A stretch of 64,000 nt of DNA from an uncultured Gammaproteobacteria bacterium (GCA_964504665.1 CAZDEH010000003.1:1140-65139), one strand, 5' to 3'. Positions 13,595-57,394 are shown, counted from the first letter of the stretch. Program-made: numbers and translations. Notes: generated by a model not told the origin, from the letters alone.

Positions 13595-13666
13595 GCCGAT
13601 GTAGCTCAGAAGTAGAGCAGACGCTTTGTAAGCGTAAGGTCGAGATTGCGATATTCTCCATCGGCT
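13595..13666 (+). tRNA. tRNA-like gene, anticodon UGU (Thr), atypical
   Basis: Perfect 7-bp acceptor stem (GCCGATG/CATCGGC) and D-arm TAGCTCAG..GAGC; anticodon loop TTTGTAA. The D-loop lacks GG and the T-loop reads TGCGATA rather than TTCRANY, so this may be a pseudo-tRNA or unusual tRNA. Confidence 0.5.
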
Positions 13667-22198: not shown

Positions 22199-22369
22199 AT
22201 GGCTAAAAAGGGAAACAGACAATCATTTAATTTAGAATGTTCTATCTGTAAAAATAAAAATTATATTACTTCTAAAAATGTGACTAAAACTAAAGAAAAA
22301 TTGGCTTTTAAGAAGTTTTGTAAAAAATGCCGCCGACAAACAATTCATAATGAAGCTAAAGTTAAATAA
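22199..22369 (+). CDS. rpmG: ribosomal protein L33 (56 aa; absent from the ORF track because it is under 60 aa)
   Basis: MAKKGNRQSFNLECSICKNKNYITSKNVTKTKEKLAFKKFCKKCRRQTIHNEAKVK; C-x2-C...C-x2-C zinc ribbon typical of L33. Confidence 0.8.
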   Translation: MAKKGNRQSFNLECSICKNKNYITSKNVTKTKEKLAFKKFCKKCRRQTIHNEAKVK

Positions 22370-22746
22370 GTTAAGTGTTTATTGGTGCCAGTTTCATCCA
22401 GGATCGTTTCTCTTTGTCTGGTATCAGTTCTTCATTACCAAAGCCATTTCCATTCAACCCATATCCATTTATCCTATATAGTACTTGCATAAAGTGTGAT
22501 AAGTGACATCCTTCTGCCCATCCTGCACAAAAAAGACTATCAAGCCTACAAGTAGGAATAGAGCTTATGGTGTTATTTTCTGTTTGATCAGTTTTAAGAA
22601 GATCAGTAAAACAAGCACATCGTTTTTCACTAGTTTCCAAAGGCATGATAAGTATTAATGCCACTTTTCCTCTTTTTCTGCAATACCCCACTTATTACTG
22701 AAATCGTAGTAAACACCTTTAAATCTTGATATACTTACCTTTGCGT

Positions 22747-22817
22747 ACGGGTGTGGTGAAATGGTATCACGAAAGTCTCCAAAACTTTCTTTCCAGGTTC
22801 GAGTCCTGGCACCCGTG
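22747..22817 (+). tRNA. tRNA-Trp (anticodon CCA)
   Basis: Acceptor ACGGGTG/CACCCGT, D GTGA/TCAC, anticodon stem AAAGT/ACTTT with loop CTCCAAA, T-arm CCAGG-TTCGAGT-CCTGG, discriminator G. Confidence 0.8.
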
Positions 22818-22824
22818 CCCGAAT

Positions 22825-31167: not shown

Positions 31168-31189
31168 CCTCCAAGGAGAGTCCTTGGAG
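31168..31189. repeat. REP-like family B palindrome (cctccaagg-agagt-ccttggag) 40 nt upstream of the RAYT-like gene start
   Basis: Perfect 9-bp arms seen directly. Confidence 0.7.
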
Positions 31190-31227: not shown

Positions 31228-31914
31228 ATGCCTGCAAGAAACGCCATAAAACAATATCAGGAAAATGGATATTATCATCTTTATAATAGAGGTGTGGAAA
31301 AGAGGATTATCTTTCTGGACTCCCAGGATTATGGTGTATTCCTCTCTTATCTGAAAGAGTATCTTCTTCCTAAAGATGATGTTGGTTTGAGTAAACAACT
31401 CTCAAATTCCAATATTACTCCTAGAGAAAAGGATAAGATTCTTAAAGCTCTTAGATTAAATAATTTTTTTGGCGAAATAACCTTATTCACCTACTGCCTA
31501 ATGCCTAATCATTTTCACCTATTGATTAGACAAAAAAGTGCTGGTTCAATTAATAAATTTATGAGATCAATCGGAACAAGATACACCATGTATTTTAATA
31601 AAAAATATAAAAGGGTTGGAGCTCTCTGCCAGGCAGTGTACAAAGCAGTACTCATAGAAAATAACAACCAACTATTACACCTTAGCAGATATATTCATAA
31701 ACAATCCTTAGCTTCGCAAGGAGAGTCCTTGGAGGCACAACCATGCTCATATTTTGATTATCTTGGTAAAAGAAAAACTGAATGGGTAAAACCAGAAGAA
31801 ATTTTAGCCTATTTTTCTTCCACAAATCCCTTCCTCTCCTACCAAGCTTTTGTAGAAGAGAAAGATGATGAACTAATTCCCCACAAACTCCTTTTAGAAG
31901 AAGGCTGGCCATAA
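31228..31914 (+). CDS. HUH/Y1 transposase family protein (IS200/IS605 TnpA-like, REP-associated tyrosine transposase-like), paralog 1
   Basis: GYYHLYNRGVEKR (YHV.NRG-like), HUH motif MPNHFHLL, Tyr region RYIHKQ; ATG at 31228 lies downstream of the REP; paralog of 36343-37017. Confidence 0.65.
   Translation: MPARNAIKQYQENGYYHLYNRGVEKRIIFLDSQDYGVFLSYLKEYLLPKDDVGLSKQLSNSNITPREKDKILKALRLNNFFGEITLFTYCLMPNHFHLLIRQKSAGSINKFMRSIGTRYTMYFNKKYKRVGALCQAVYKAVLIENNNQLLHLSRYIHKQSLASQGESLEAQPCSYFDYLGKRKTEWVKPEEILAYFSSTNPFLSYQAFVEEKDDELIPHKLLLEEGWP
31707..31732. repeat. REP-like A/B hybrid palindrome (gcttcgcaagg-agagt-ccttggaggc) inside the RAYT-like CDS, encoding LASQGESLEA
   Basis: Seen directly; the left arm is family-A-like and the right arm family-B-like. 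Confidence 0.6.
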
Positions 31915-31959: not shown

Positions 31960-32241
31960 ATGAATGAATCTTTGAGGGATGTTAGCGGGGCTATAATATC
32001 AGAAACCCCTCTTGAAGGATCAAAAGTGATTCAATTACCACCCCAAAATGCTGATGAAGTCCGACGAAGATTGGGCTTAGATCAAGTATCCCCTCTCCAC
32101 CATCCACGTAATTTTGGAGCTATCGCCGCAACTCATAATGACTATGAAGGAACAATGGGAAGAACATCTCCAGGAATAGCTTTGAAATTAAATCGACACA
32201 ATAAGAATCGATTTGGACAAGTTAAAAAAGTCTCTGTTTAA
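31960..32241 (+). CDS. hypothetical small protein
   Basis: ORF only. Confidence 0.3.
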   Translation: MNESLRDVSGAIISETPLEGSKVIQLPPQNADEVRRRLGLDQVSPLHHPRNFGAIAATHNDYEGTMGRTSPGIALKLNRHNKNRFGQVKKVSV

Positions 32242-32721: not shown

Positions 32722-32910
32722 ATGAATAAAGCACTTGATTTTATTAGTGAGGTTAGGGTAGAATTACAAAAAGTCGTTTGGCCTACACCAAATGCTACAC
32801 TACGGCTTACAGTAATTGTTATTTTAGTAACTCTTACCGTAGGCTTTTTTGTTGGAGGAGTAGATTTTGTGCTAACAAAAGCACTTGAACTTTTGTTAAA
32901 TAAAAAATAA
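32722..32910 (+). CDS. secE: preprotein translocase subunit SecE
   Basis: 62-aa single-TM protein; ...VRVELQKVVWPT...; immediately upstream of nusG-rplK-rplA. Confidence 0.75.
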   Translation: MNKALDFISEVRVELQKVVWPTPNATLRLTVIVILVTLTVGFFVGGVDFVLTKALELLLNKK

Positions 32911-32912
32911 AT

Positions 32913-33737
32913 ATGAATGAAGATCAAACTATAAAACAGGATGACCCACAAACAACCCCAATTGATGAGGCAAATCCAGTTGTGGAAGAACCAGAAGCAA
33001 CTGAAGCAAAACCCGACGAAATAGATACTGCGGGTGACGCAGAGGAGAGATCTCAGGCGTCGACCGCAAGTGAGCCTGCGAACGAGGAGGCACCTGAAAT
33101 ACCACCAGCAAAGGACCCGCAGACAGAAGAACCAGCAGAAACAACAGAAGAAGGAACTGAAGAATCTGATGTCGCCGACGAGCCGGCTCCCCAACCTGAA
33201 CCTGATATCCCTGGTTCCCATTGGTATGTAGTCCATACTTATTCTGGACAAGAAAACAGAGTGGCAGCAGCTTTAAAGCAAAGAGTTGAATCAGAACATT
33301 TGGAAAATCAAATCTTGGATATACTAGTTCCTACCCAGGAGAAAATTGAAATCAGGGGTGGAAAAAAAGAAAATGTGAAAGAAAAAATATTTCCTGGTTA
33401 TATTTTAGTCAGAATGGTTTTGGATGATATTTCCTGGCTGGCAGTTCGGACCACACAAGGAGTCACATCATTTGTAGGAATGAGCAATAAACCAACCGCC
33501 ATCCCTGATTCCGAGGTCAAATCAATCGTTTCTTATTTGTCTCAAGGAGCTCAACCTACTTATAAAACAACTTTCTCGGAAAATGATACTGTCAAAATCA
33601 TTGACGGACCGTTTGCTGAATTTATCGGCAAAGTGGAATCTGTTGATAAAGAAAGAGGTAAAATTAAAGTCCTGGTTTCTATCTTTGGCAGAGAAACACC
33701 AGTGGAGCTAGACTTTCTTCAAGTTGCGAAATTATAA
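32913..33737 (+). CDS. nusG: transcription termination/antitermination factor NusG with a ~100-aa acidic low-complexity N-terminal extension
   Basis: NGN domain HWYVVHTYSGQENRV; KOW motif DTVKIIDGPFAEFIGKV; conserved secE-nusG-rplK order. Confidence 0.85.
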   Translation: MNEDQTIKQDDPQTTPIDEANPVVEEPEATEAKPDEIDTAGDAEERSQASTASEPANEEAPEIPPAKDPQTEEPAETTEEGTEESDVADEPAPQPEPDIPGSHWYVVHTYSGQENRVAAALKQRVESEHLENQILDILVPTQEKIEIRGGKKENVKEKIFPGYILVRMVLDDISWLAVRTTQGVTSFVGMSNKPTAIPDSEVKSIVSYLSQGAQPTYKTTFSENDTVKIIDGPFAEFIGKVESVDKERGKIKVLVSIFGRETPVELDFLQVAKL

Positions 33738-33746
33738 CCCAAAACT

Positions 33747-34172
33747 ATGGCAAAGAAGATTAAGACCTATATTAAATTAAATGTTCCAGCAGGATCAGCT
33801 ACAGCTGCCCCTCCTGTGGGACCTGCTTTAGGTCAACACGGTCTTCCTATCATGGAATTTGTCAAGGCTTTTAACGAGAGGACAGCCGATAAAAAAGGCA
33901 ATATTTTACCTGTAGTTATTACAGTTTATATTGATAGAACTTTTTCTTTTATTACCAAAGAACCACCGGTAGCAGAAATGATTAAGAAATCTTTAAATAT
34001 CGAAAAAGGTTCAGGTAAAGCCGGTAAAGAGTCTGCTGGAACTTTAAGCCAGGATCAAATTAGAAAAATTGCCGAAGCTAAACTACCTGATTTTAATACC
34101 AAGCAGGTGGAATCTGCTATGAAAATGGTTGAGGGAGTTGCCAAATCAATGGGAGTAAAAATCCAAAAATAA
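33747..34172 (+). CDS. rplK: ribosomal protein L11
   Basis: KLNVPAGSATAAPPVGPALGQHGLPIMEFVKAFN. Confidence 0.9.
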   Translation: MAKKIKTYIKLNVPAGSATAAPPVGPALGQHGLPIMEFVKAFNERTADKKGNILPVVITVYIDRTFSFITKEPPVAEMIKKSLNIEKGSGKAGKESAGTLSQDQIRKIAEAKLPDFNTKQVESAMKMVEGVAKSMGVKIQK

Positions 34173-34173
34173 T

Positions 34174-34965
34174 ATGGGTAAAACTAAAATAAAAAAAATT
34201 GAGGAAATTGAAGAAGTAAAAACAAATACCATACCAGAAATGAGTGAGGATGCACGGCGGGAAACCGAGCTGGCAGGACCCCAAACCAAGGACGAAAAGA
34301 AAAGTAAGAAACCAAAAAAAGGTCAGCCTAAAATCCGTTCTAAAAAATATCAGGAAGTTTTAGAAAAAATAGATAAAAACCAAAAATTAGCAGCAAACTT
34401 AGCTGTAGAAGCCACCCAAAAAGGTTCCTATTCTAAATTTGAAGGAACAATAGAGGCTCATATTAATACTAATGCTAAAAATCTACGCGGTTTAGTTAAT
34501 TTGCCTTTTGCCCAAGGTAAGAAATTAAGGATTTTAGCTTTTGGAACTAATGCAGATAAATCCGGTGCTGACATTATTGGATCAGAAGAGGCAATTGGAG
34601 AAATTGAAAAAGGCAAAATTAATTTTGATATTGTAGTTACAACCCCAGAGTGGATGCCCAAATTAGCTAAAATTGCTAAAATCCTGGGACCCAAAAGTTT
34701 AATGCCTAACCCCAAAAATGGAACTATCACAGAAAATTTAGAAAAAGCTGTCACAGAGCTTCAAGCCGGTAAAACCGAATATAAAACCGAAAACAATGGG
34801 CAGGTAATTCATCTATCCGTTGGAAAGTCTAATCAAAACCCGGAAGAAATAGTAGCAAATCTTAAAGTGATTTATAATACTGTGGGCAGATCAAAAATCA
34901 AAAAGATCTTTCTTTCCCCCACCATGGGCCCATCTGTGAAAGTAGATTTATCAACTCTAAATTAA
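34174..34965 (+). CDS. rplA: ribosomal protein L1 with a Lys-rich N-terminal extension
   Basis: FEGTIEAHINTNAKNLRGLVNLPFAQGKK...; 1-nt spacing from rplK. Confidence 0.85.
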   Translation: MGKTKIKKIEEIEEVKTNTIPEMSEDARRETELAGPQTKDEKKSKKPKKGQPKIRSKKYQEVLEKIDKNQKLAANLAVEATQKGSYSKFEGTIEAHINTNAKNLRGLVNLPFAQGKKLRILAFGTNADKSGADIIGSEEAIGEIEKGKINFDIVVTTPEWMPKLAKIAKILGPKSLMPNPKNGTITENLEKAVTELQAGKTEYKTENNGQVIHLSVGKSNQNPEEIVANLKVIYNTVGRSKIKKIFLSPTMGPSVKVDLSTLN

Positions 34966-34970
34966 TTTTT

Positions 34971-35237
34971 ATGAAAGAAGATTTTTTGAGAACTACTGAA
35001 AATGTTTTAAAAGAAGGACCTCCATTAGAATGGTACTATGGATTTGGAAGAAAAGATGCTGGAATTACACATATAGATTATTCAGATATCTTTAGACAAT
35101 CTTTTAATGGAAGATTAGATCGCTATTTTGGGCAGTGGTCTCATATTGGTGTCATGCCAAGGGTTTTTGGAATTCCTGAAGGAGAAGAAGATCAATATGA
35201 ACAGTTAATTATGCAACTGCATGTACAAGATCTATAA
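34971..35237 (+). CDS. hypothetical small protein
   Basis: ORF only. Confidence 0.3.
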   Translation: MKEDFLRTTENVLKEGPPLEWYYGFGRKDAGITHIDYSDIFRQSFNGRLDRYFGQWSHIGVMPRVFGIPEGEEDQYEQLIMQLHVQDL

Positions 35238-35270
35238 GATATCTGGATTTTGGCCTGAAGAAATCGTACA

Positions 35271-36185
35271 TTCTAGGTGGAAGTGCACCACTTGCTTAGG
35301 ATAATACCTCCATCATTTTCTCATATGGTGTCAAGTATCCCAGACATTTTCTGGGAGTTGAATTTAATCTGTACTCCAACTCCTTGATCTGATCCTCTGT
35401 TAAATTATCCAGACTCAACCTTTTAGGAATGAATCTTCTTATCCTGCCATTAGTATTTTCAACTGTCCCTTTCTCCCAGGAATGGTAGGCATGACAGAAA
35501 AACATAGATAATTTAAGTTTACTGGCAATCTCCTGATGGTTGGTATTTTCTGCTCCATTGTCAGCTGTTAAAGTTACTCTGGGAAAAGTAGCCAATCTTT
35601 CAATTAAGCTTTCTGTTTTAGACTCAGCAGATCTACTGGTAAGAGATAATATCGTCAGTCTTGTTAACCTTTCAACTGTCACAGACAAGGCAGTTTTATC
35701 TGTCTGTTTACCAATAACATTATCTGTTTCCCAGTCTCCAACCCTGGATCTTAAGCTGACTGTCTCAGGTCTTAAATCAATACTGACTGCAAAGGGTATT
35801 TTTGAGGCTCTTTGAACCCTTCTACCCATCTTTTTCATCCTCTTTTTCCTGGCATGAGGTAGTAGTTTCCAAAGATTATATCTTTTTGATTTCTTTGAAT
35901 AAATGTACTGGTAAATTGCCTCAGTACAAATACTTTCACCAGGATGTATCTTTGGTAATCTTCCACTAATTTCCTCCGGAGTCTAGCTAAATGGAGCTCT
36001 TAAATGTTCCCTGACAAAACTTGAATGGGATCTGCCTAATCTTTTAGCAATATCCCGAAGAGATAATCCAGCCTCTTTAAAAGCTACTAATTTTTCTCTT
36101 TCTTCCAAACTTAGATGTTTATATTTATTCATTAAGTGCACCTCCTTCCCCAGGTATGAATTTTACTCTAGGTGGTGCACTTCGT
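35271..36185. mobile_element. degenerate IS30-family insertion sequence (~0.9 kb)
   Basis: DDE transposase with IS30 hallmarks; imperfect terminal inverted repeats sharing the core GAAGTGCACCAC (35280-35291 and, as reverse complement, 36172-36183); direct tctaggtgg at both ends. Confidence 0.6.
35296..36132 (-). pseudogene. IS30-family transposase, disrupted by an in-frame TAG (35983-35985) and missing ~50 aa between the HTH and DDE regions
   Basis: N-terminal HTH (LSLEEREKLVAFKEAGLSLRDIAKRLGRSHSSFVRE), then TAG, then TPEEISGRLPKIHPGESICTEAIYQYIY, GDWETD, TADNGAE, HSWEKGTVENTNGRIRRFIPK. Confidence 0.65.
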
Positions 36186-36284
36186 TTTAGAATCTATGAA
36201 TAGTAGGAAAAAAGATGCTCTTTTAATAATTTATGAAGGACTAGAATCTGCTCCATTTCAAGTCTTATTAATAAATTGATTTGT

Positions 36285-36309
36285 GCCTCCAAGGGGACGC
36301 CTTGGAGGT
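36285..36309. repeat. REP-like family B palindrome (gcctccaagg-ggacg-ccttggaggt), 5' flank of the RAYT-like gene
   Basis: Seen directly; an identical 23-nt copy at 37039-37061. Confidence 0.75.
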
Positions 36310-36342
36310 TGACATTTCTCACAGTCATGCTATTTTATATAT

Positions 36343-37017
36343 ATGCCCAGCAAAAATTCCATCAAACAGTATACAGAAAATAGCTATTATCATATCTATA
36401 ATCGAGGAGTTGAGAAAAGAAAAATTTTTCTTGATGAACAAGATTATGGAGTATTCCTCTCCTATCTTAAAGAATACCTTTTATCAAAAGATGAAAAAGA
36501 CTTATTAAATCAACTTTCTATTCCAACTATCTCTGCTCAAGAAAGGGACCGGGTACTTAAAAAACTTAGACTGAACAATTTTGCTGATGAAATAACTTTG
36601 TTAGCTTATTGTTTGATGCCGAATCATTTTCACTTCTTTATTAAGCAAAAAAACGAAAAGTCCATTGATAAGTTTATGAATTCCCTCTTAACTAGATATA
36701 CTATGTATTTTAATAAAAAATATAAACGAGTTGGGGCTTTATATCAGGATGTTTATAAAGCAGTTACGGTTGACCGCGAAGATCAATTTCTTTATCTTAC
36801 TAAATATATTCATAAACAGGCTTTAAAAACCCACAAAAGACAACCGTCTTCCCTACCTGATTATCTTGGAAACAGAAAAACTGAATGGGTTCACCCCGAA
36901 GAAATATTAGCTTATTTTTCCAAAACCAAACCCTCTCTTAGTTATAAAGATTTCCTTGATCTAGAAGAATCTGAAGATCTATTAACTATCCAAGACTTAA
37001 TGATTGATATCAAATAA
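36343..37017 (+). CDS. HUH/Y1 transposase family protein (RAYT/IS200-like), paralog 2
   Basis: SYYHIYNRGVEKR, MPNHFHFF (HUH), KYIHKQ; flanked by identical palindromes. Confidence 0.65.
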   Translation: MPSKNSIKQYTENSYYHIYNRGVEKRKIFLDEQDYGVFLSYLKEYLLSKDEKDLLNQLSIPTISAQERDRVLKKLRLNNFADEITLLAYCLMPNHFHFFIKQKNEKSIDKFMNSLLTRYTMYFNKKYKRVGALYQDVYKAVTVDREDQFLYLTKYIHKQALKTHKRQPSSLPDYLGNRKTEWVHPEEILAYFSKTKPSLSYKDFLDLEESEDLLTIQDLMIDIK

Positions 37018-37038
37018 CTCTCCACTCTCCCTCTTCAT

Positions 37039-37061
37039 GCCTCCAAGGGGACGCCTTGGAG
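37039..37061. repeat. REP-like family B palindrome (gcctccaagg-ggacg-ccttggag), 3' flank of the RAYT-like gene
   Basis: Identical to 36285-36307. Confidence 0.75.
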
Positions 37062-37063
37062 AT

Positions 37064-38059
37064 TCATTTTCCTTTTCCTTTGATTTTTCTCCACACTAAA
37101 TTTAAATCAAACTTAAGAAAATATAACGAGGCAGTTCCTAAGATTGCCAGAACTATCAGCGTCAAGATATGGGCAAAAACTGTGCCTGCTGAAGCAACAT
37201 CAGCATTAATACCTAACACACCTCCAAATACTGCTAAACCTGCTGCTTCAGCTGAACCAATAAAACCAGGGGCAGATGGCATTAAATAGGTAAAAGCATT
37301 TAAGGCGTTACCCAAAATTCCCTGACTTAAACTAAAATCAGGCATAAATTGACGGAAACAGACCAGCATTAAAAATCCATCTGAGGTTGCCGCCAAAAAA
37401 CTTAAGAATATAAATAAAGCTAGTTCTTTGGGATGACGATCTAAGACTTCAAACCCTTCAATAATTGTCACACTAAAATTAACGAATTTTTGCTTCAAAC
37501 TTGGGAATATTAAAACTCCGCTGACAAGCTTTATTAGTTTTTTGAGATTATGTGATTTTTTAACAGCCATGGTTAATAGAACCATTAAAACAATAAAAAT
37601 CAGTGAAATTACTTTGAAAAAATCAGCAGGTAAATTTGTTGGCACAAAATTAATAAATACCACCACTATCATGACAAACGTTAGAAAATCCATGAAACGG
37701 TCGATAAATATCCAAGTTAAAGTTTTAGCAAAAGGAACTTTAAATTGATGTGATAAATAAACGCTTTTAGCAATCTCCCCTGCCCTGATAGGAATCAGCA
37801 GAGATAAAAACTGACTCAAAAAATTTAACAGCCATAAATCTTTCCAAGCCAAATTTGGTATATTAAGTATTTTTTGGAGTCTTAAGGCCTTAAACCCTGC
37901 GGAAGCCACAAAGAACAATAAGAAAGGAAAAATTACACTCGGGCTGGCTGAAAACACTTTGGCCAAAACATCACCTAAATTAACAAACCTACTCCAAATA
38001 ATAATCAGCACAACACCTAAAATGGTGTTTAAAACAATCTTGGGAAGAATTTGCCTCAT
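37064..38059 (-). CDS. UPF0104/lysylphosphatidylglycerol-synthase-TM-like (flippase-like) membrane protein
   Basis: 8-TM protein; N-terminal KIVLNTILGVVLIIIWSRFVNLGDVL...FKALRLQKIL pattern typical of the family. Confidence 0.45.
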   Translation of the reverse strand: MRQILPKIVLNTILGVVLIIIWSRFVNLGDVLAKVFSASPSVIFPFLLFFVASAGFKALRLQKILNIPNLAWKDLWLLNFLSQFLSLLIPIRAGEIAKSVYLSHQFKVPFAKTLTWIFIDRFMDFLTFVMIVVVFINFVPTNLPADFFKVISLIFIVLMVLLTMAVKKSHNLKKLIKLVSGVLIFPSLKQKFVNFSVTIIEGFEVLDRHPKELALFIFLSFLAATSDGFLMLVCFRQFMPDFSLSQGILGNALNAFTYLMPSAPGFIGSAEAAGLAVFGGVLGINADVASAGTVFAHILTLIVLAILGTASLYFLKFDLNLVWRKIKGKGK

Positions 38060-38100
38060 CTGGAGATTATACTTTATTTGTGCTAATCTTAAAATAAACT

Positions 38101-39066
38101 ATGCCAGGCTTAACAAAAACTCAGATCATTGGTTTGATCGGTTTCTTATTAATATTAATCAGCATCCCAATTTCCTTCTCTTTAGCCAAGAGATCCCAAA
38201 TTTTCCGCTCCCGGGCATCTGAATTAAAAACTACTGCTACAACCACCGGAACAGTTTCCGGAACAGTGACAAAATCCCGCGAAGTTCCTGCTTCTTCCCC
38301 CCTGACTGATTTACAAAAATTACTACAGGGAGAATCCCCAACCCCAGACAGTACTACAAACCCAAGTATTTCCCCTACTCCCACATCTGAAGTTAGCCTG
38401 GCTTTCGGGCCAACTTTAAATCTTAAGGTTTCTATCGAAGGTAGGCCTGAAGCTAAACAATCAGATAGAATATTTATCGGTATTGCTTCAAACAGTACTG
38501 CTCCCCCAACATACATTTTGACTTTCACTATCGATATGCCTGATTCAGGAATATTTAAAGGTATCTCCCTGGCAGGTCTAAATCCGGGTTCTCAGTATAC
38601 AGCTTTTATCAAAGGAACATCACAAATTGACGTTTCCTCAACTTTTACCATGGATCCAACAGAAAGCAATCTTAATAATGATCAACCAATAACCTTAATT
38701 TCCGGTGACTTAAATGAGGATAATACTATCAATACTACAGATTATTCTCTTGCCCAAAACCTATATGGCACTACATCATCTTCCAGTAATTGGAATGCCC
38801 GAGCTGATTTTAACAAGGATAATATAATTAATAACTATGACCTGGCTATTATTTCTAAAAATATAGGCAAAGCAGGAGCATCTGGATCCTGGATTTCTTC
38901 CCCAAGGCCATCTACCCAATCAGCCTCATTAACTACTAAACCAGGTGTGGGTGGTCCACCTACAAATTTTGGTGATCTACTTTTATCATCCAGCCCCTCT
39001 GCCTCACCTACAGAACCATCTAATAATACTTCTAATTCTTCTAGTTATTGGCTACGGGTTCCATAA
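38101..39066 (+). CDS. membrane-anchored secreted protein with dockerin-like Ca-binding repeats
   Basis: GDLNEDNTINTTDYSL ... ADFNKDNIINNYDLAII (dockerin type I-like pair); Ser/Thr/Pro-rich. Confidence 0.45.
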   Translation: MPGLTKTQIIGLIGFLLILISIPISFSLAKRSQIFRSRASELKTTATTTGTVSGTVTKSREVPASSPLTDLQKLLQGESPTPDSTTNPSISPTPTSEVSLAFGPTLNLKVSIEGRPEAKQSDRIFIGIASNSTAPPTYILTFTIDMPDSGIFKGISLAGLNPGSQYTAFIKGTSQIDVSSTFTMDPTESNLNNDQPITLISGDLNEDNTINTTDYSLAQNLYGTTSSSSNWNARADFNKDNIINNYDLAIISKNIGKAGASGSWISSPRPSTQSASLTTKPGVGGPPTNFGDLLLSSSPSASPTEPSNNTSNSSSYWLRVP

Positions 39067-39173
39067 AAGAATTCTTAACTTGGACTTCAGCCGGATCTTG
39101 TAAACCCAGTCTTTTCCAAACGGTAAAATGCCTTGACAAATTTGGATTTGTGTAATACAGTATATACAATTGA

Positions 39174-39467
39174 ATGAAAGTTATCAAATCTGCTTTAGAG
39201 TTTGTATGGGATAAAGGAAATAGTGGAAAAAACTTAAAACATAAAGTAGAAGATCAGGAAGCAGAGGAACCGTTTCTTGATGAAAATAAAGTAATTTACA
39301 AAGATCTACTCCCCTCTGAAAAGGAGAACCGGTTTATTTTAGTTGGAAAGAGCAAACAAGACAGATTATTATTTATATCTTTTACATATAGAAATAATAA
39401 AATTAGAATAATTTCAGCAAGAGATATTAATAGAAAGGAGGTGTCAATTTATGAAAAAGCCATTTAA
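39174..39467 (+). CDS. brnT: BrnT-family ribonuclease toxin (DUF497)
   Basis: FVWDKGNSGKNLKHKV...RIISARDINRKE signature. Confidence 0.7.
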   Translation: MKVIKSALEFVWDKGNSGKNLKHKVEDQEAEEPFLDENKVIYKDLLPSEKENRFILVGKSKQDRLLFISFTYRNNKIRIISARDINRKEVSIYEKAI

Positions 39468-39717
39468 ATTACCTAAATTTAAAAACGAAGATGAGGAAAG
39501 AGAATTTTGGTGGAAGATAGATCTTTCCGAATATTTTGAGCCTTCAGATTTTGAAAGAGTAAGTTTTCCAAACTTAAAACCTACTTCAAGATCTATTTCT
39601 ATTAGAATTCCAGAATATCTTTTAAATAGAGTTAAAGAGAAGGCTAACCAGATCAATATTCCTTACCAATCTCTAATCAAGGAATATATTCAAAAAGGAG
39701 TTTTTTCTAATGAGTAG
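39451..39717 (+). CDS. brnA: BrnA-family antitoxin (CopG/RHH-like)
   Basis: ISIRIPEYLLNRVKEKANQINIPYQSLIKEYIQKGV; overlaps brnT by 17 nt, in the toxin-first order typical of brnTA. Confidence 0.6.
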   Translation: MKKPFKLPKFKNEDEEREFWWKIDLSEYFEPSDFERVSFPNLKPTSRSISIRIPEYLLNRVKEKANQINIPYQSLIKEYIQKGVFSNE

Positions 39718-39802
39718 GCCGAGATACATCGATAACATTTCTAAGTTAGATGTATTTATTAATAAATACACTATACAATCCTAAAAGCATCCTAAAAACG
39801 CT

Positions 39803-40306
39803 ATGTCATCAGAGAATAGATTAGTTAGAATACAAGAAATATTAGCAAGAAGAGAAGAACTTATTCCGCTGCTTGATCCAGCAAATGTTATAACAAGAGA
39901 TAAAGCAGCTGTATTTCGACAGATGGAGGAACAGGCTGCTATGGATGTTACATCGGAATTAAAAATAATTGTCGCACCATATGCAACTACTATTCATGCA
40001 ATGATTGCTGATAAATTACATCATCCAGAGGATATTCTTGTGAGAGATAAGGATAAACGTATCCAATTTTCAATGGTAAGTTCAGATCCCGATTTTATAA
40101 CCTTAGTCACCATGAAGTTACAGCAAATTAAAATGTCAGAGAAAAAAGAATTAATATGTAAAGAAGTTGTTTTTGGGGAAATTCCAACGAGCTGTTTTAC
40201 TCCATTTACAGAAAATTTTATAGACGTTCGATTTTTGAACCAATTATGTACGATTTACACTGGTACCATTATATACCTCAATTTTTTAAATATCTTACTA
40301 CAATAG
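39803..40306 (+). CDS. hypothetical protein
   Basis: ORF only. Confidence 0.3.
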   Translation: MSSENRLVRIQEILARREELIPLLDPANVITRDKAAVFRQMEEQAAMDVTSELKIIVAPYATTIHAMIADKLHHPEDILVRDKDKRIQFSMVSSDPDFITLVTMKLQQIKMSEKKELICKEVVFGEIPTSCFTPFTENFIDVRFLNQLCTIYTGTIIYLNFLNILLQ

Positions 40307-40617
40307 CTTTCTCAAAAACAGGTTCTCTTGATTTTATCTTTTATGATAATGGGGAAATGAGATACCACCCTACTTTTTATACACTTGCAAAAGATAGGTT
40401 TATCTCAGGGTCTGTTTCTCAAAGAGCTGTTAATAGTAAATACGGCACTGATTATAGACAGGATACTGAATATAGATATCGATACTGCCAAGATGGTTTG
40501 TTTCGTCGTGAACCAGTTACCAATGAAACTCTAACAATACAAGAAGAGGTTGGTACTATTCTCCTACAGTTACCTTTTACAGGCTTTGATGTTTCCTCGT
40601 TTAGACAACTAAAATAA
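40246..40617 (+). CDS. hypothetical protein
   Basis: ORF only. Confidence 0.25.
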   Translation: MYDLHWYHYIPQFFKYLTTIAFSKTGSLDFIFYDNGEMRYHPTFYTLAKDRFISGSVSQRAVNSKYGTDYRQDTEYRYRYCQDGLFRREPVTNETLTIQEEVGTILLQLPFTGFDVSSFRQLK

Positions 40618-40685
40618 TACAAACAAAAAAACAAACAAAAACCGTATTGACATTTTTATAAGCTGAATAATATACTTAATAAAAT

Positions 40686-41210
40686 ATGAGCGCTGAAAAT
40701 AGAAGTGAAGAATTAACTGTTATTATTATGGGGTCTGGTGGTGATGAAAAGCACGCTGATGTAATAGCAGCGGTTATGCAAAAATTTGGAGTAGATTATG
40801 TCAAAAGGGTAGGCTCTGCTCATAAAACTCCTAAGCATGTTTTAGGAATAGTAAACAAATATGATGCTTTAGTAGATAGACGAATCGCTTATATTACCGT
40901 CGCAGGTCGAGCTGATGCCTTAAGTGCTTTTGTGGATGGCGCTTCTTCCAATCCTGTCACCGCAGCTCCTCCTTATGGTGAAAAATATGCCGGGCAGGAT
41001 GTTTTATCCTCACTACGGGTTCCTTCTGGTATTGGCACTGCTGTTTGTATTGAAGCAGAAGCTGCTGCTTTACATACAATAAAAATATTTGCCTTAAGCA
41101 ACCCCAAACTCAGACATGCTTTAGATGAGTACCACCTACAGTCTGCTCTTAAAGTTACTTCTGCTGATGCTAGAATGCAGGTACAAAATCAAACTAGAGG
41201 AGTTGAATAA
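40686..41210 (+). CDS. PurE/AIR-carboxylase-family protein
   Basis: VIIMGSGGDEKHADV, SAHKTP, ITVAGRADAL, VPSGIGTAVCIEAEAAAL parallel PurE-fold motifs. Confidence 0.5.
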   Translation: MSAENRSEELTVIIMGSGGDEKHADVIAAVMQKFGVDYVKRVGSAHKTPKHVLGIVNKYDALVDRRIAYITVAGRADALSAFVDGASSNPVTAAPPYGEKYAGQDVLSSLRVPSGIGTAVCIEAEAAALHTIKIFALSNPKLRHALDEYHLQSALKVTSADARMQVQNQTRGVE

Positions 41211-41246
41211 ATTCTGGTCTTAAGTGTAAAAAACCGCTAAAATCCA

Positions 41247-41275
41247 TTGACAATTGTTACTCTTACTAGTACAAT
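41247..41275 (+). promoter_or_regulatory. sigma70-like promoter TTGACA-17-TACAAT for rplJ-rplL
   Basis: -35 at 41247-41252, -10 at 41270-41275. Confidence 0.55.
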
Positions 41276-41289
41276 ATCAAAGCTTAAGA

Positions 41290-41431
41290 AAGTGAGCATG
41301 TTATAAGTCTCACCGAGGCGAATGAAATAGCTATCAGTCATCAGCTATCAGCTTTCAGATATCTTTTTTGTCTGAAGACTGAAGACTGACTACTGAAGAC
41401 TACCAAATACCTCGCTTAAGCGGGGTTTTTT
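41290..41431 (+). promoter_or_regulatory. rplJ leader: a long imperfect inverted repeat plus a terminal GC hairpin/T-run attenuator
   Basis: tcagtcatcagctatcagctttcag opposes ctgaagactgaagactgactactgaagac; cctcgcttaagcgggg + TTTTTT at 41410-41431, 10 nt before the rplJ ATG. Confidence 0.45.
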
Positions 41432-41440
41432 AATATCAAA

Positions 41441-41971
41441 ATGAAGACAAGAGCACAAAAAGAAGAATCTGTAAAAAATCTGACTGAAAAGTTCAGGTCT
41501 GCTAAATCTGTAGTTTTTACAGATTATCGTGGGATGACTATGAGTCAACTGTCAAACCTTCGCAATAAACTTACTGAGGCTGATGCACAATTTATTATTA
41601 CTAAAAATACTCTGGTAGATATTTCTTTAAAAGCAGCAGGACTCTTTGGTAAGTCTAATAATATTGCCAAAGGACCTACTGCTACTTTATTTAGTTTTAA
41701 TGATGAAATTTTACCTATCAAAACACTGGCAAAAGCACTACAAGACAACCAAGTAGGTAAATTTAAGGGTGGATTTTTAAACGGAGAATTTATGGAGGCT
41801 CTATCTATTACTAGACTAGCTGAACTGCCAAGTAAACTAGAATTACAAGCCAAAATTGTTGGTTCACTCTCTTCTCCACTTTATGGAATGGTGAATGTCC
41901 TTCAAGGTAACCTAAGAAATTTAGTATATGCACTCGATCAAATTAGAATCTCGAAAGGTGGTGAACTTTAG
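41441..41971 (+). CDS. rplJ: ribosomal protein L10
   Basis: [41 protein letters not shown]; ends with TAG. Confidence 0.85.
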
Positions 41972-41975
41972 ATAT

Positions 41976-42542
41976 ATGTCAGATGATACACAAGAAAATG
42001 TACAAGAAGAAAAAATTGAAGAAGCTGTAGAACAAGCAACTGAATCTGCTGAAGAAGCTAAAGAGGCTGTTGAAGAAGTTAAAGAAACAGTCGCAGAGAT
42101 TAAAGAGGAAATCAAAACAGACGCACCAAAAACTTCCAAAAAAGCTTCTAAAGCAGTTTCTAAAGACTTAGAAAAAATTATTGAGCAAATTGAAAAATTG
42201 ACAGTTTTAGAACTGGCTGATTTAGTTCATGCCTTAGAAGAAAAGTTTGGTGTGAGTGCCGCTGCTCCTATGGCAGTAGCTACTGCAGGCGCTGCTCCAG
42301 CTAATGGCGCAGAACCAGTGGAAGAAAAAACTACCTTTAATGTCATTTTAAGCTCTGGTGGAGCTAACAAAATAGCTGCTATTAAAGCAGTGAGAGAAAT
42401 TGTACCAACACTTGGCTTAAAAGAAGCGAAAGATTTAGTTGAAGCTGCTCCAAAACCAGTCTTAGAAAGTGTTAACAAAGCTACAGCTGAAGAAGCAAAG
42501 GCAAAATTAACAGCAGCTGGTGCAACCGTAGAATTACAGTAA
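41976..42542 (+). CDS. rplL: ribosomal protein L7/L12 with an acidic N-terminal extension
   Basis: [29 protein letters not shown] (NTD) and [29 protein letters not shown] (CTD); ATG at 41976 just after the rplJ stop. Confidence 0.8.
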
Positions 42543-43867: not shown

Positions 43868-44821
43868 TTATGGAAGCAAACCGACATCTCTGAGGATTTT
43901 AGTGAGTTTTGAATAATCAAACACATTAACTACCCCATCTTGATTCATGTCTGCTTTCAGAGTACCTTGACCTTGACTACCCCAGGCAGAAAGAAGCACA
44001 CTTAAATCCTGCAAGTCTACTTTTGTGTCCTGATTAACATCTCCTTCCAGAGACCCTATTGGAGTAGGGGTTAAGGTAGGAGAAGGCAACACCTCTATCG
44101 TGGGAGTCACAGTTGATGAAGGAGATGCAATCGGCGTTTCCCCCAAAATTTTGATAGTGACTCCTGTTTTGGAAGATAAAATATTGGCATTATCCGAGTT
44201 TCGATAAATTGTGGAAGTATCATTAAAGGAAATAGTAGCCTCCCCAGGAGATTTAGGGGTAAAAATTACATCTGCCATAGCAGAACCGCTTGATTCAGGC
44301 TGTGACTGAAAACCAGGGTTAGGCACACCTCCTACTAAACTAACAGATCCGGTCTCGTTATCAATAGTGTTTTCCACCCAATTACTAATAAACCAATTTT
44401 TGATAAACCCACTTGCTGTGGCTTCTGATCGGAGGTCAATACTTTTAGCCTGAAGAATATTGTTGGGAAATTTTAATTTGGCTACAAATAGATTTGCACT
44501 GTCATTATCTGATTTAACTAAAACAGATACCTTAATTTGGCCTCCCAGGGTAGCTTCTGTAGGACTTGCATTTAAAATAAAGCTAGCACCGTGTGAGGAT
44601 ACCGGGGGCACCTGAGGCTCTTCCTGGGGCTTTGGCTTTGCTTTTAAAAAATATGCTGCACCTAAAATTACTATAAGAAGCAACAATATACCAACTGCCA
44701 GAATCATTTTTTTTGGAATAACAGCACTGGGTTTTTTCTTTATACCAGGATCTATGAGAGTTGTTTGGGGCAGTTGTTGATCCATTAATTTAAGTATAGG
44801 AGGCATGGCGTGGTTTCGCAA
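43868..44821 (-). CDS. membrane-anchored secreted protein with C-terminal dockerin-like repeats
   Basis: GDVNQDTKVDLQDLSVLL ... ADMNQDGVVNVFDYSKL; N-terminal TM. Confidence 0.45.
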   Translation of the reverse strand: MRNHAMPPILKLMDQQLPQTTLIDPGIKKKPSAVIPKKMILAVGILLLLIVILGAAYFLKAKPKPQEEPQVPPVSSHGASFILNASPTEATLGGQIKVSVLVKSDNDSANLFVAKLKFPNNILQAKSIDLRSEATASGFIKNWFISNWVENTIDNETGSVSLVGGVPNPGFQSQPESSGSAMADVIFTPKSPGEATISFNDTSTIYRNSDNANILSSKTGVTIKILGETPIASPSSTVTPTIEVLPSPTLTPTPIGSLEGDVNQDTKVDLQDLSVLLSAWGSQGQGTLKADMNQDGVVNVFDYSKLTKILRDVGLLP

Positions 44822-47872: not shown

Positions 47873-49063
47873 ATGAAAATAGGTTTTGATGGATCCCGTG
47901 CTTTTTTCAATAATAAGACCGGCACGGAAAATTATTCCTTTCAACTCTTAAAACACCTAGCTAAAATTGACAGTAAAAACCAATATATCATTTATTTAAG
48001 ACCTTTAGCCTCGCAAGGACCAGCCTTGCAAGGCTGGCCGACTAATTTCCATTTTACTATGATTCCTTATTCAAGACTATGGACTCAATTTGGCTTAGCT
48101 CAACAAACTTTTAAAGATAAAATTGATGTGCTATTTGTTCCTGCCCACACACTCCCCTTAATTAGAAAACCCGGACTTAAAACTGTAGTCACAGTACATG
48201 ACTTAGGTGCAGAGTACTTACCACAAACTCATCAATTAAAACAAAGGGTATATTTAAAATTGATAACTGATTTTCAACTTAAATCTGCCGGATATCTTAT
48301 TGCCGTATCAAGGAATACTAAAGATGATCTGGTGAAAAAAGTCCATATTAATCCTAATAAAATCACTGTTATATATGAAGGATATGATAAAACAGCATTT
48401 AAACCCTTAAAAACTGATGAATTAAAAGATACTTTAAACTATTACGATTTAGAAAGAGATAGATATTTCTTATTTGTGGGAACCATCCAACCAAGAAAGA
48501 ATTTAGAAAGGTTAATTAAAGCTTTTGCTAATTTTTTAGCGGGTGGTGCGAGCCGGGGCGCCCCATATTTTTATTATGGGGCTGGCGAGCAACAGGACCC
48601 GTTAAAGCCCCGAACAAAAAAAATACAACTTATCCTAACTGGTTCTAAAGGTTGGCTTTCAGAAGAAATTTATGAACTTCCTAAAAAGCTTGGTATCGAA
48701 AATCAAGTGAAGTTTTTAGGCTATGTTCCTGACAAGAATTTACCGGCGCTTTACAGCGGAGCTACCGCCTTACTTTTCCCTTCCTTATTTGAAGGTTTTG
48801 GACTACCTCTACTTGAAGCTATGGCTTGTGGAACACCGGTTTTAACATCTAATCTTTCTTCTATGCCGGAGATTTCAGGAAAAGCAGCACTCCTTGTAGA
48901 TCCTTACTCTGAAGAACAAATCGCGCAAGGAATTAATAGGCTATTTTACGATCAAAAACTAAAAAATCAGCTGAAAAAACTGGGAATTGCGCAAGCCCAA
49001 AAATATTCCTGGGAAAGATGTGCTGAGGAAACCTTAAAACTACTTGAAGCTACTTCAGATTAA
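47873..49063 (+). CDS. GT4-family glycosyltransferase carrying two in-frame GC-rich inserts
   Basis: EGFGLPLLEAMACGTPV (GT4 E-x7-E region); inserts at 48006-48035 (LASQGPALQG) and 48540-48613 (AGGASRGAPYFYYGAGEQQDPLKPRT). Confidence 0.75.
   Translation: MKIGFDGSRAFFNNKTGTENYSFQLLKHLAKIDSKNQYIIYLRPLASQGPALQGWPTNFHFTMIPYSRLWTQFGLAQQTFKDKIDVLFVPAHTLPLIRKPGLKTVVTVHDLGAEYLPQTHQLKQRVYLKLITDFQLKSAGYLIAVSRNTKDDLVKKVHINPNKITVIYEGYDKTAFKPLKTDELKDTLNYYDLERDRYFLFVGTIQPRKNLERLIKAFANFLAGGASRGAPYFYYGAGEQQDPLKPRTKKIQLILTGSKGWLSEEIYELPKKLGIENQVKFLGYVPDKNLPALYSGATALLFPSLFEGFGLPLLEAMACGTPVLTSNLSSMPEISGKAALLVDPYSEEQIAQGINRLFYDQKLKNQLKKLGIAQAQKYSWERCAEETLKLLEATSD
48006..48035. repeat. REP-like family A palindrome in-frame in the GT4 gene (tagcctcgcaagg-accag-ccttgcaaggct)
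   Basis: Seen directly. Confidence 0.7.
48540..48613. repeat. GC-rich element family C (gggtggtgcgagccggggcgccccat ... atggggctggcgagcaacaggaccc), in-frame in the GT4 gene
   Basis: Near-identical arms recur at 56326-56400 with a different central segment. Confidence 0.7.
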
Positions 49064-56294: not shown

Positions 56295-56325
56295 AAATTA
56301 ATCATAACATATATACGATGGGTGG

Positions 56326-56400
56326 TGCGAGTCGGGGCGCCCCATCGAACACCCGCAACGAAGTGAGGATGTCGGATGGGGCTGACGAGCAATAGGACCC
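56326..56400. repeat. GC-rich element family C, intergenic copy (atgggtggtgcgagtcggggcgccccat ... atggggctgacgagcaataggacccat)
   Basis: Both arms match 48540-48613 with 3-4 substitutions. Confidence 0.7.
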
Positions 56401-56401
56401 A

Positions 56402-57394
56402 TCATTTTTTTGATAATTTCCATACCCCTACTCCCAACATTAAATAATACCCTATCCACATCAATATCCCTGTTTGGTTAATATTAATACTGGCCCCAGG
56501 TATTTTGGAAAATAGCTGAACGATATAAATAAAGTAGGTCAGTAAAATTCCCGGTATTAAACCCACAATTTGACCCAAGAGTTGACTGATCAAACCTAAA
56601 ATCATAGCCACAAAACCTGAAATCATCACGATTGGCACACTCCAAAGAACTAAACTATTTGTAAGGAGTCCTGCAATAGAAATTTGATTAAAATTATAGG
56701 CAATCACTGGTAATACCATCAGTTGAGCAGCTAAAGTTACGGCAAAATCTTCTCTCATTAGCTTGGGGATCTTTTTTATAGCTTCAGAAAAAATTGGAGC
56801 TACCACTATTACTCCAAATGTAGCCAGAAAACTGAGCTGAAAAGAAATATTTAGCAACCAATTTGGTTGATAAAGTAACATCAGGCCTCCGGTAAACAGT
56901 AAAATCCACCAACCAGTTCCCTCCCTGCCTAACAGCTTTCCTGTATAGGAGAGTCCTGCCATAATAGCCGCCCTAACTACCGGCACTCCAAAGCCTGTTA
57001 ACACACTATAAAATATAATTACTCCTAAAGTGAATATTATTGTTTTTCTCCTGCCTAATAAACTTACCAGACTCATGACAAATCCTGCCAAAATAGTTAA
57101 ATTTTGACCTGAAACTACCACAATATGAATGGTTGAAGTTATCTGTAATTGCTTTTTAAAATAAAATGGTAAACTCGACTGATTCCCTAAAATAATGCCT
57201 GAAAGTAGGGCTGACTGAGGATAAGGTAAGATACGGTCAATAGTTTGAGATAGCGACGATCTAAGAGGCAAAAATAGCTGAACACCTTCTTCTTTATAAG
57301 TGGGGTCAACTCCCCCAATTTGGATTACCCTAAAACTAAATAATATAGCCCAAATTATGATAATCCCAATAATAACCTTGTACATTGTTACCAA
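56402..57394 (-). CDS. comEC: ComEC/Rec2-family competence channel protein (TM core only)
   Basis: SALLSGIILGNQSSLP...IHIVVVSGQNLTILAG (Competence domain); adjacent to comEA. Confidence 0.65.
   Translation of the reverse strand: MVTMYKVIIGIIIIWAILFSFRVIQIGGVDPTYKEEGVQLFLPLRSSLSQTIDRILPYPQSALLSGIILGNQSSLPFYFKKQLQITSTIHIVVVSGQNLTILAGFVMSLVSLLGRRKTIIFTLGVIIFYSVLTGFGVPVVRAAIMAGLSYTGKLLGREGTGWWILLFTGGLMLLYQPNWLLNISFQLSFLATFGVIVVAPIFSEAIKKIPKLMREDFAVTLAAQLMVLPVIAYNFNQISIAGLLTNSLVLWSVPIVMISGFVAMILGLISQLLGQIVGLIPGILLTYFIYIVQLFSKIPGASININQTGILMWIGYYLMLGVGVWKLSKK

Follow-up and report, generated by a model that had tools for sequence, protein, structure and literature searches.

In the canonical bacterial arrangement, secE, nusG, rplK, rplA, rplJ and rplL lie in one direction, with rplJ less than 0.5 kb past rplA and with rpoBC after rplL. 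In Escherichia coli, rplKA (the L11 operon) and rplJL (the L10/beta operon) are separate, separately autoregulated units. The 64,000-nucleotide stretch of DNA analyzed here (hereafter the window; CAZDEH010000003.1:1140-65139 of assembly GCA_964504665.1, deposited under an uncultured Gammaproteobacteria bacterium) has the same genes in the same direction, and secE-nusG-rplK-rplA and rplJ-rplL are each contiguous in it, but rplA ends at 34,965 and rplJ starts at 41,441, 6,476 bp away (gap 34,966-41,440). The break falls exactly at the boundary between the transcription units of the E. coli L11 and L10/beta operons. An initial annotation of this DNA had noticed the separation of ~6.5 kb, which the Pfam gene boundaries bear out, and had placed in it a small open reading frame (ORF), a degenerate IS30 element, a RAYT-like gene, a flippase-like membrane protein, a dockerin-like protein, a brnTA toxin-antitoxin pair and a PurE-fold gene, calls that stand after Pfam and NCBIfam searches. 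Comparison with relatives leads us to read the interval as composite, with an ancestral flippase/dockerin core and newer cargo that would have entered at two junctions on either side of it; we put the probability of this reading at roughly 0.85.

The flippase/dockerin core in relatives

Two divergent genes make up the core: one for a flippase-like membrane protein (LPG_synthase_TM/TIGR00374, Pfam 96 bits) at 37,064-38,059 on the minus strand, and one for a protein with a Dockerin_1 domain (35.9 bits) at 38,101-39,066 on the plus strand. Exact-protein matches gave the L1 gene regions of eight relatives (L085/L086, L087, L089, L146-L148 and L149/L150), a further 56 metagenome loci came from a search with the flippase-like protein alignment, and the window's proteins were mapped by tblastn onto all of them. 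Every locus that reaches far enough has the order rplA / flippase-like(-) dockerin(+) / rplJ, set within a wider order of PBP ... ASCH-like(-) secE nusG rplK rplA / flippase-like(-) dockerin(+) / rplJ rplL HTH GPI WecG. Where both rplA and the flippase-like gene are present (33 loci), the median gap between them is 16 bp, and some of the ends overlap by 8 nt; the flippase-dockerin spacing is 37-351 bp in all loci; and the 31 loci with both dockerin and rplJ have a median gap of 433 bp. The full rplA-rplJ span ranges over 24 loci from 2,034 to 17,851 bp and is never below 2 kb.

The relatives' L1 proteins are only 45-81% identical to that of the window (with a ceiling of ~80% for the L1 core), which marks them as different populations. 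Identity to the window is 34-80% for the flippase-like protein and 38-61% for the dockerin protein; in the orthology alignments of the two (A2 and A3) it is 45-61%, and in the dockerin alignment, A3, 51-61%. Divergence of this order is what vertical descent would produce. In L138, L142 and L143, where the flippase homologue is at most 31% identical, the gene lies away from ribosomal genes. Because the order rplA / flippase / dockerin / rplJ is the same in all relatives, the rplA-rplJ split and the two-gene core, ~2 kb of the gap, are evidently ancestral to the clade.

The same is true of the other departures from the canonical cluster. The initial annotation had correctly placed rpmG and tRNA-Trp ~10 kb from secE: rpmG, for ribosomal protein L33, is at 22,199-22,369 (plus strand; Pfam Ribosomal_L33, 62 bits), and tRNA-Trp (CCA) is at 22,746-22,820 (plus strand; ARAGORN and Rfam tRNA). 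L147 and L131 likewise have tRNA-Trp well apart from secE, ~7 kb ahead of it and next to the same conserved genes, and in L147 rpmG is there too. Likewise, the 21 kb past rplL in the window contain no rpoBC, and neither the window nor the loci of relatives gave a tblastn match to Bacillales ORFs of RpoB and RpoC size. By these comparisons the detachment of rpmG and tRNA-Trp from secE, and that of rpoBC from rplL, is ancestral as well.

These observations bear directly on the interpretation given in the initial annotation, that a canonical secE-nusG-rplKAJL cluster was recently broken here and that all 6.5 kb are accessory DNA of recent date. There are reasons to think so. The interval has hallmarks of mobility (an IS30 element with inverted repeats, a RAYT gene with hairpins and a toxin-antitoxin pair), and ORF88, the small ORF next to rplA, and the IS30 element are missing in all relatives. 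However, the flippase-like and dockerin genes, ~2 kb, separate rplA from rplJ in all of the relatives' loci that were examined, the minimum rplA-rplJ distance in the clade is 2,034 bp, codon usage is native, and the RAYT unit is common to L150. A recent break is thus very improbable and largely refuted by the gene-order comparison; for the core, the finding of the same order in all relatives runs counter to a recent insertion. What survives of the earlier claim of repeated rearrangement or insertion at a conserved locus is the cargo, which is mobile or accessory and differs between relatives; the part that fails is the recent break of a canonical cluster, the core being inherited.

A different possibility is that selection holds the flippase/dockerin pair in place, for example as an envelope module co-regulated with ribosome synthesis by growth rate. 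The position of the pair is invariant although the cargo on both sides turns over heavily, its surroundings are envelope-related (PBP, glycoside hydrolases, EamA, WecG, GT4 and MreB, with a sortase in some relatives), and a second dockerin paralogue lies just past rplL (43,868-44,821, minus strand; ~56% identical in L085 and L149), with the result that two dockerin genes bracket rplJL. We nevertheless consider this quite unlikely. The flippase-like gene runs against the direction of the ribosomal genes, the two members of the pair diverge from an intergenic region of their own, and rplJ is equipped with a separate promoter-like site and leader. In addition, the ~20 kb around are equally conserved, which leaves nothing to single out the pair.

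Host lineage and integrity of the contig

The closest named homologues of the window's L1 are from Candidatus Daviesbacteria and the Microgenomates group, and the G+C content of the window is ~36%. As judged from protein homology, the host is an ultra-small groundwater bacterium of a Daviesbacteria-like Microgenomates clade of the candidate phyla radiation (CPR; Patescibacteria). An identical L1 protein occurs on Rifle aquifer groundwater metagenome contigs (PRJNA268031/ANAN16).

In metagenomic data an arrangement of this kind could also be an artefact of assembly or binning, with a contig that is chimeric at the IS30 element or at the hairpin repeats and a false linkage of rplKA to rplJL. Assemblies of the same population do end within IS30, as such an explanation would have it. 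Yet the rplA-ORF88-IS30 junction is common to four independent metagenome assemblies, which excludes an assembly chimera; L150 independently has rplA followed by RAYT, flippase, dockerin and BrnTA; and both flanks are syntenic with relatives across ~20 kb. An artefact is hardly credible in the face of these agreements.

Cargo at the two junctions

Junction A, between the convergent ends of rplA and the flippase-like gene, has a basal gap of ~10 bp and holds 2.1 kb in the window: ORF88, a dead IS30 element and a hairpin-flanked RAYT gene. ORF88 (34,971-35,237, plus strand) starts 5 nt past rplA. It belongs to no Pfam or NCBIfam family, its only match among 5.8e9 proteins is to itself, and its codon usage is native; it is an ORFan. 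In L150 this place is taken by a HopA1-like gene, from which ORF88 might have decayed, but the two have no similarity.

The IS30 element (35,264-36,199, minus strand) is 936 bp long and is bounded by 28-nt terminal inverted repeats at 35,264-35,291 and 36,172-36,199. The NF033563 match, 170 bits, covers the C-terminal 180 residues of the transposase (35,296-35,838, minus strand; model positions 104-267). The element resembles the IS30 family in its DDE transposase (NF033563) and in the length of its terminal inverted repeats, ~28 nt, and differs in being just 936 bp long and in carrying an in-frame TAG, the single one in the transposase frame 35,296-36,141 (minus strand), at 35,983-35,985. The transposase is presumably short by ~50 codons relative to full-length IS30 transposases. 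The element is an inactivated remnant, with the TAG observed and an internal deletion presumed from the shortfall. A look-up of the exact product gave no record of other copies of the fragment.

Junction B, between the dockerin gene and rplJ, has a basal gap of ~0.2-0.4 kb and spans 2.4 kb in the window. The extra ~2 kb hold a BrnTA pair, a frameshifted gene for a protein of 275 residues and a class II purE. The BrnT toxin gene (39,174-39,467, plus strand; PF04365, 75 bits) and the CopG/BrnA antitoxin gene (39,451-39,717, plus strand; PF12441, 102 bits) overlap by 17 nt, and the pair is AT-rich (GC 0.287, z = -2.5). As in described BrnT/BrnA type II systems, both Pfam families are above cutoff, the genes overlap and the toxin gene leads, all of which marks the pair as a probable member; in contrast, the NCBIfam score of BrnA is 37 against a cutoff of 60.

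Downstream, where the initial annotation had two hypothetical genes, there are indeed two ORFs (39,803-40,306 and 40,246-40,617, plus strand), but they are the halves of one accessory gene of ~275 codons (39,803-40,617) split by a frameshift near a T5 run at ~40,225-40,245. The C-terminal ORF matches residues 151-273 of proteins of 271-301 residues. One of these proteins is P0124, whose residues 1-144 align with the N-terminal ORF at 53% identity and which joins the two halves; a homologue search with the N-terminal half itself gave only itself, and P0124 was reached through the C-terminal half. P0124 is intact (275 residues) and is encoded at 1153-1980 of L151, beside rpsB on another metagenome contig. 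Its family is rare, with four other cluster representatives among 1.8e9 proteins. The frameshifted gene is not related to the TPR gene beside purE in L144, and the ORF beside P0124 is not a PurE.

The last cargo gene encodes a class II PurE of the AIR carboxylase type (40,686-41,210, plus strand; AIRC, 97 bits). Its best solved structure is 3rg8 (E = 1.5e-36, full length, residues 10-164), deposited as phosphoribosylaminoimidazole carboxylase, PurE protein, which we take to be the Treponema denticola class II enzyme, and the protein has GSAHKT with the SAHK motif. It scores 103 against TIGR01162, below the cutoff of 150; that model is presumably centered on class I enzymes. Neither purC nor purO was found in the 64-kb window, and purE thus stands alone there. 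In L144 (723-2973), a purE-purC-purO cluster, its last gene IMP cyclohydrolase-like, occupies the same dockerin/rplJ junction, with a PurE that is 33% identical.

Among relatives the same two junctions carry a wide assortment of genes. In addition to the L144 purine cluster, these include HigB-like/HTH and MazE/PIN toxin-antitoxin pairs, F-type ATP synthase genes, four tandem GH5-like genes, genes for PMT_2, Glyphos_transf, Wzy_C and CARDB proteins, proteins of 1,272-1,777 residues, 23S-rRNA-IVP proteins, a HopA1-like protein and RAYT. Even the four nearest relatives (L085, L095, L149 and L150; L1 core ~80%) all differ in cargo. L149 is near-basal, and L150 has the order rplA - HopA1-like - RAYT - flippase - dockerin - BrnTA. 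Since cargo differs between relatives, insertion has been repeated. Composition, a check suggested in the initial annotation, does not betray a foreign source: codon usage is native for most of the interval, and in GC content, GC3 and codon usage nothing deviates except the AT-rich BrnTA and RAYT genes.

RAYT-like genes and their hairpins

The RAYT unit at junction A (RAYTin; 36,286-37,062, plus strand) consists of a hairpin, the gene (36,343-37,017) and a second hairpin. The hairpins, CCTCCAAGG-GGACG-CCTTGGAGG, are direct copies at 36,286-36,308 and 37,040-37,062; the upstream one adjoins a TTGACA, and the downstream one abuts the flippase stop codon. The other RAYT-like gene that the initial annotation reported upstream of secE is there at 31,228-31,914 (RAYTup; plus strand). 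In this case the hairpin, CAAGG-AGAGT-CCTTG, is at 31,172-31,186 beside a TTGACA box and has its second copy within the gene's own coding sequence, at 31,717-31,731. Both proteins exceed the cutoff of 23 bits for PF01797 (Y1_Tnp, the Y1 HUH transposase domain), with 52.8 bits for RAYTin and 40.8 for RAYTup, and both are below the cutoff of 80 for NCBIfam REP_Tyr_transpos (NF047646 for RAYTup), with 38.9 and 35 bits, respectively.

Matched hairpin pairs recur with homologues elsewhere. L085 has a RAYTup orthologue in the same place (75% identical) with its own pair (6372 and 6916), the second copy of which is likewise inside the coding sequence. The RAYT of L150 is 73% identical to RAYTin and has hairpins at ~2270 and ~3025 with an identical GGACG loop; because the RAYT unit is common to L150, it was probably at junction A before ORF88 and IS30. 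L006, from Saccharibacteria, has a RAYT-like gene with a matched pair in its own rplA-rplJ gap (~10.8-11.5 kb; a GTTGAAC-type loop). The loops are identical within an element and differ between elements (AGAGT in RAYTup, CCAGG in L085, GGACG in RAYTin and L150), and in each RAYT case the upstream copy is next to a TTGACA -35-like box.

Across the 64-kb window there are 8 hairpins of the form CAAGG-N5-CCTTG, with varying loops, where 0.07 would be expected; they lie at 6841, 28,997, 31,172, 31,717, 36,290, 37,044, 48,014 and 62,922. Five of the eight are in frame inside long ORFs, where they encode LASQGSTLQG in PBP, LASQGPALQG in a GT4-like protein, LASQGESLEA in RAYTup, QLRKVYPCKAK in a TGT-like protein and QLRKDTPCEA in LeuRS. 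The hairpins of PBP and LeuRS each coincide with a variable loop that is 0-2 residues longer than in orthologues, and the relatives' PBP orthologues are without the hairpin.

Several features are those of RAYT/REP systems and of IS200/IS605: a Y1_Tnp domain with HUH-like NHFH and YIHKQ motifs (by eye), a gene with copies of its own hairpin on either side, further hairpins of the family scattered over the 64 kb, and one paralogue (RAYTup) vertically inherited at a fixed place. Others are not, namely the direct orientation of the hairpins, two paralogues 5 kb apart, low copy number, the score of RAYTin below the NCBIfam RAYT cutoff (38.9 versus 80) and the presence of five of the eight hairpins in coding sequences. 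One could go further and propose that hairpins and genes together are an active or recent REP/RAYT-type system in CPR bacteria, one that seeds promoters and housekeeping coding sequences (PBP, LeuRS, the TGT-like gene and a glycosyltransferase) without net change in length and whose DNA breaks make both junctions hotspots for cargo. We regard this proposal as unlikely. Among the papers listed in a literature search, none mentions RAYT together with Patescibacteria.

The rplJ promoter-like site and an L10-leader-like element

A sigma-70 consensus scan finds a promoter-like site, TTGACA-17-TACAAT, at 41,247-41,275 (plus strand), immediately upstream of rplJ. It is followed by a leader of ~160 nt that has an L10-leader-like element, GCTTAAGAAAG-T-stem...stem-A-CCGAGGC, at ~41,283-41,320 (plus strand) and ends in a terminator-like hairpin (41,409-41,426) with a T run directly before the start codon. 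The motif GCTT(A/G)AGA(A/C)AG-T-stem...stem-A-CCGAGGC precedes rplJ in 24 of 25 distinct relatives, independently of the cargo that lies beyond it. All four pairs of the closing stem are kept in 23 of the 24, with compensatory GC/AT/TA and AT/GC exchanges.

In common with the Rfam L10 leader (RF00557), the element is directly upstream of rplJ, has the AAGA(A/C)AG...stem...CCGAGG motif and a downstream intrinsic-terminator hairpin, covers the full model and has a closing stem that covaries among relatives. It differs in a long, variable extra hairpin in the spacer and in a score below gathering. At gathering thresholds Rfam finds only tRNAs in the window. Relaxing the cutoff to E<=1 over the region still does not bring out the L10 leader; for that, the search had to be confined to 235 nt. 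The stretch upstream of rplK gave neither an L1 nor an L11 leader. The relatives fall into two groups. In L098, L123, L139 and L118 the motif is right at the start codon and there is no terminator; in the others the motif is followed by a variable hairpin and then by a terminator that abuts the ATG. These are two leader designs within one clade, which may work by attenuation in the terminator group and by translational control in the group of four.

We infer that rplJL would be an independent expression unit, with a predicted promoter and a putative L10 leader. Because rplJL carries its own promoter-like site and leader, an insert upstream of that promoter should be harmless to control, and insertions are probably tolerated because the junctions lie outside both ribosomal units. 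Promoter-like sites, strong matches to the sigma-70 consensus, also precede three of the inserted modules: RAYT (36,309-36,336), BrnT (39,133-39,161) and purE (40,647-40,676).

How unusual the split is

A scan of a genome collection with the L1 alignment returned only distant bacteria, its peptide patterns being too universal, and hence it was used as background, with 80 diverse bacterial loci among the matches listed. The sample is small, and divergent L10 genes could escape detection in it. Of the 75 informative loci, 55 have rplJ less than 1 kb after rplA, and 17 have it at least 2 kb off or not within 8-10 kb. Adjacency is kept in only one of ten CPR loci (from Saccharibacteria, Falkowbacteria and other Patescibacteria), which suggests that its loss may be common in CPR bacteria. 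Among the papers listed in a literature search, none mentions rplKAJL together with CPR.

Flanking genes and other features of the window

The upstream cluster, secE (32,722-32,910; Pfam SecE), nusG (32,913-33,737; NusG/KOW), rplK (33,747-34,172; Ribosomal_L11_N/L11) and rplA (34,174-34,965; Ribosomal_L1), is contiguous on the plus strand from 32,722 to 34,965, with intergenic gaps of 2-9 nt. On the other side of the interval, also on the plus strand, are rplJ (41,441-41,971; Ribosomal_L10) and rplL (41,928/41,976-42,542; Ribosomal_L12_N and Ribosomal_L12). The rplL frame is open from 41,928, and its likely start is the ATG at 41,976, which gives 188 residues, the same as in L085. Judged from the start points of the Pfam domains, NusG, L1 and L7/L12 have long acidic or lysine-rich N-terminal extensions of ~100, 55-80 and 60-80 residues, respectively, and the relatives' proteins are similar in length.

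The amber-interrupted ORF that had been reported upstream of secE was not found. There is only an ORF of 93 residues there (31,960-32,241), which has no homologues; the amber-interrupted frame actually detected is that of the IS30 transposase. The 93-residue ORF is not similar to an ORF of 217 residues at the same place in L085, of which it might have been a remnant.

Two further observations concern the rest of the window. A fifth tRNA, at 13,595-13,666, scores 51.9 bits with Rfam and is absent from the ARAGORN list. A GC-rich repeat in two parts, GGGTGGTGCGAG(C/T)CGGGGCGCCCCAT ... ATGGGGCTG(G/A)CGAGCAA(C/T)AGGACCC, has two copies, one (48,541-48,600) in frame inside the GT4-like ORF at 47,873-49,063 and the other (56,320-56,405) intergenic, upstream, by eye, of a putative arginyl-tRNA synthetase ORF.

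Discussion

The feature is a clade-level gene-order variant combined with two accessory-gene hotspots, both of them known kinds of genome organization. We propose the following history. First, the common ancestor of the Daviesbacteria-like Microgenomates clade would have fixed a divergent flippase-like/dockerin pair between rplA and rplJ, and its descendants would have inherited the pair vertically. In the basal layout, the 3' end of the flippase gene would be ~10 bp from that of rplA, followed by a divergent promoter region of ~40-150 bp, the dockerin gene, ~0.2-0.4 kb and rplJ, for a total of ~2.0-2.9 kb. Second, this layout would offer two permissive junctions, the convergent rplA/flippase ends (A) and the stretch from the dockerin 3' end to the rplJ promoter (B), at which self-contained cassettes may have been gained and lost in different lineages. 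At junction A the hairpin-bracketed RAYT would have come first, a state common to the L150 lineage, and the ORFan and IS30 later, with IS30 inactivated afterwards. Junction B would have received BrnTA, the accessory gene that is now frameshifted and class II purE, BrnTA and purE having promoter-like sites of their own. Finally, insertions at either junction would be nearly neutral, as they would fall outside both ribosomal transcription units. The identities of the genes, the conserved core, the variable cargo and the conserved, covarying leader are direct observations; we infer the order of events, promoter use and autoregulation.

Several points weigh against the composite history. Gene order was compared within the clade and with distant bacteria, and the age given to the core insertion is accordingly provisional. 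Many of the metagenome loci may be from the same populations, and the counts then overstate the number of independent lineages. The flippase-like protein has 80% identity to its L150 counterpart but only ~50% to those in L085 and L149, even though all three relatives match the window at ~80% in the L1 core; this hints at recombination, or at two deep allelic types within the locus, either of which would blur a purely vertical history. L150 has a BrnTA pair at junction B as well, but its identity to that of the window is no more than 45-48%, and the two could reflect shared ancestry or independent gain. With respect to rplJL as an expression unit, the match to RF00557 is 22.9 bits against a gathering score of 44 (model 1-138 aligned; E=0.06 in a 235-nt search), and the promoter and terminator calls are consensus matches alone.

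More generally, a "universally conserved" ribosomal cluster can be split without any recent genome instability; here the split is a stable feature of a whole CPR clade. The flippase/dockerin wedge is a possible synteny marker for the clade, and the two junctions offer defined spots at which metagenomes can be screened for strain-level accessory genes. Any tool that presumes rplKAJL adjacency, as in marker extraction or binning checks, will misjudge such genomes. The more promising leads are the RAYT/hairpin system and the sub-threshold L10 leader. The latter suggests that feedback control by ribosomal proteins may persist in reduced CPR genomes, below Rfam thresholds.

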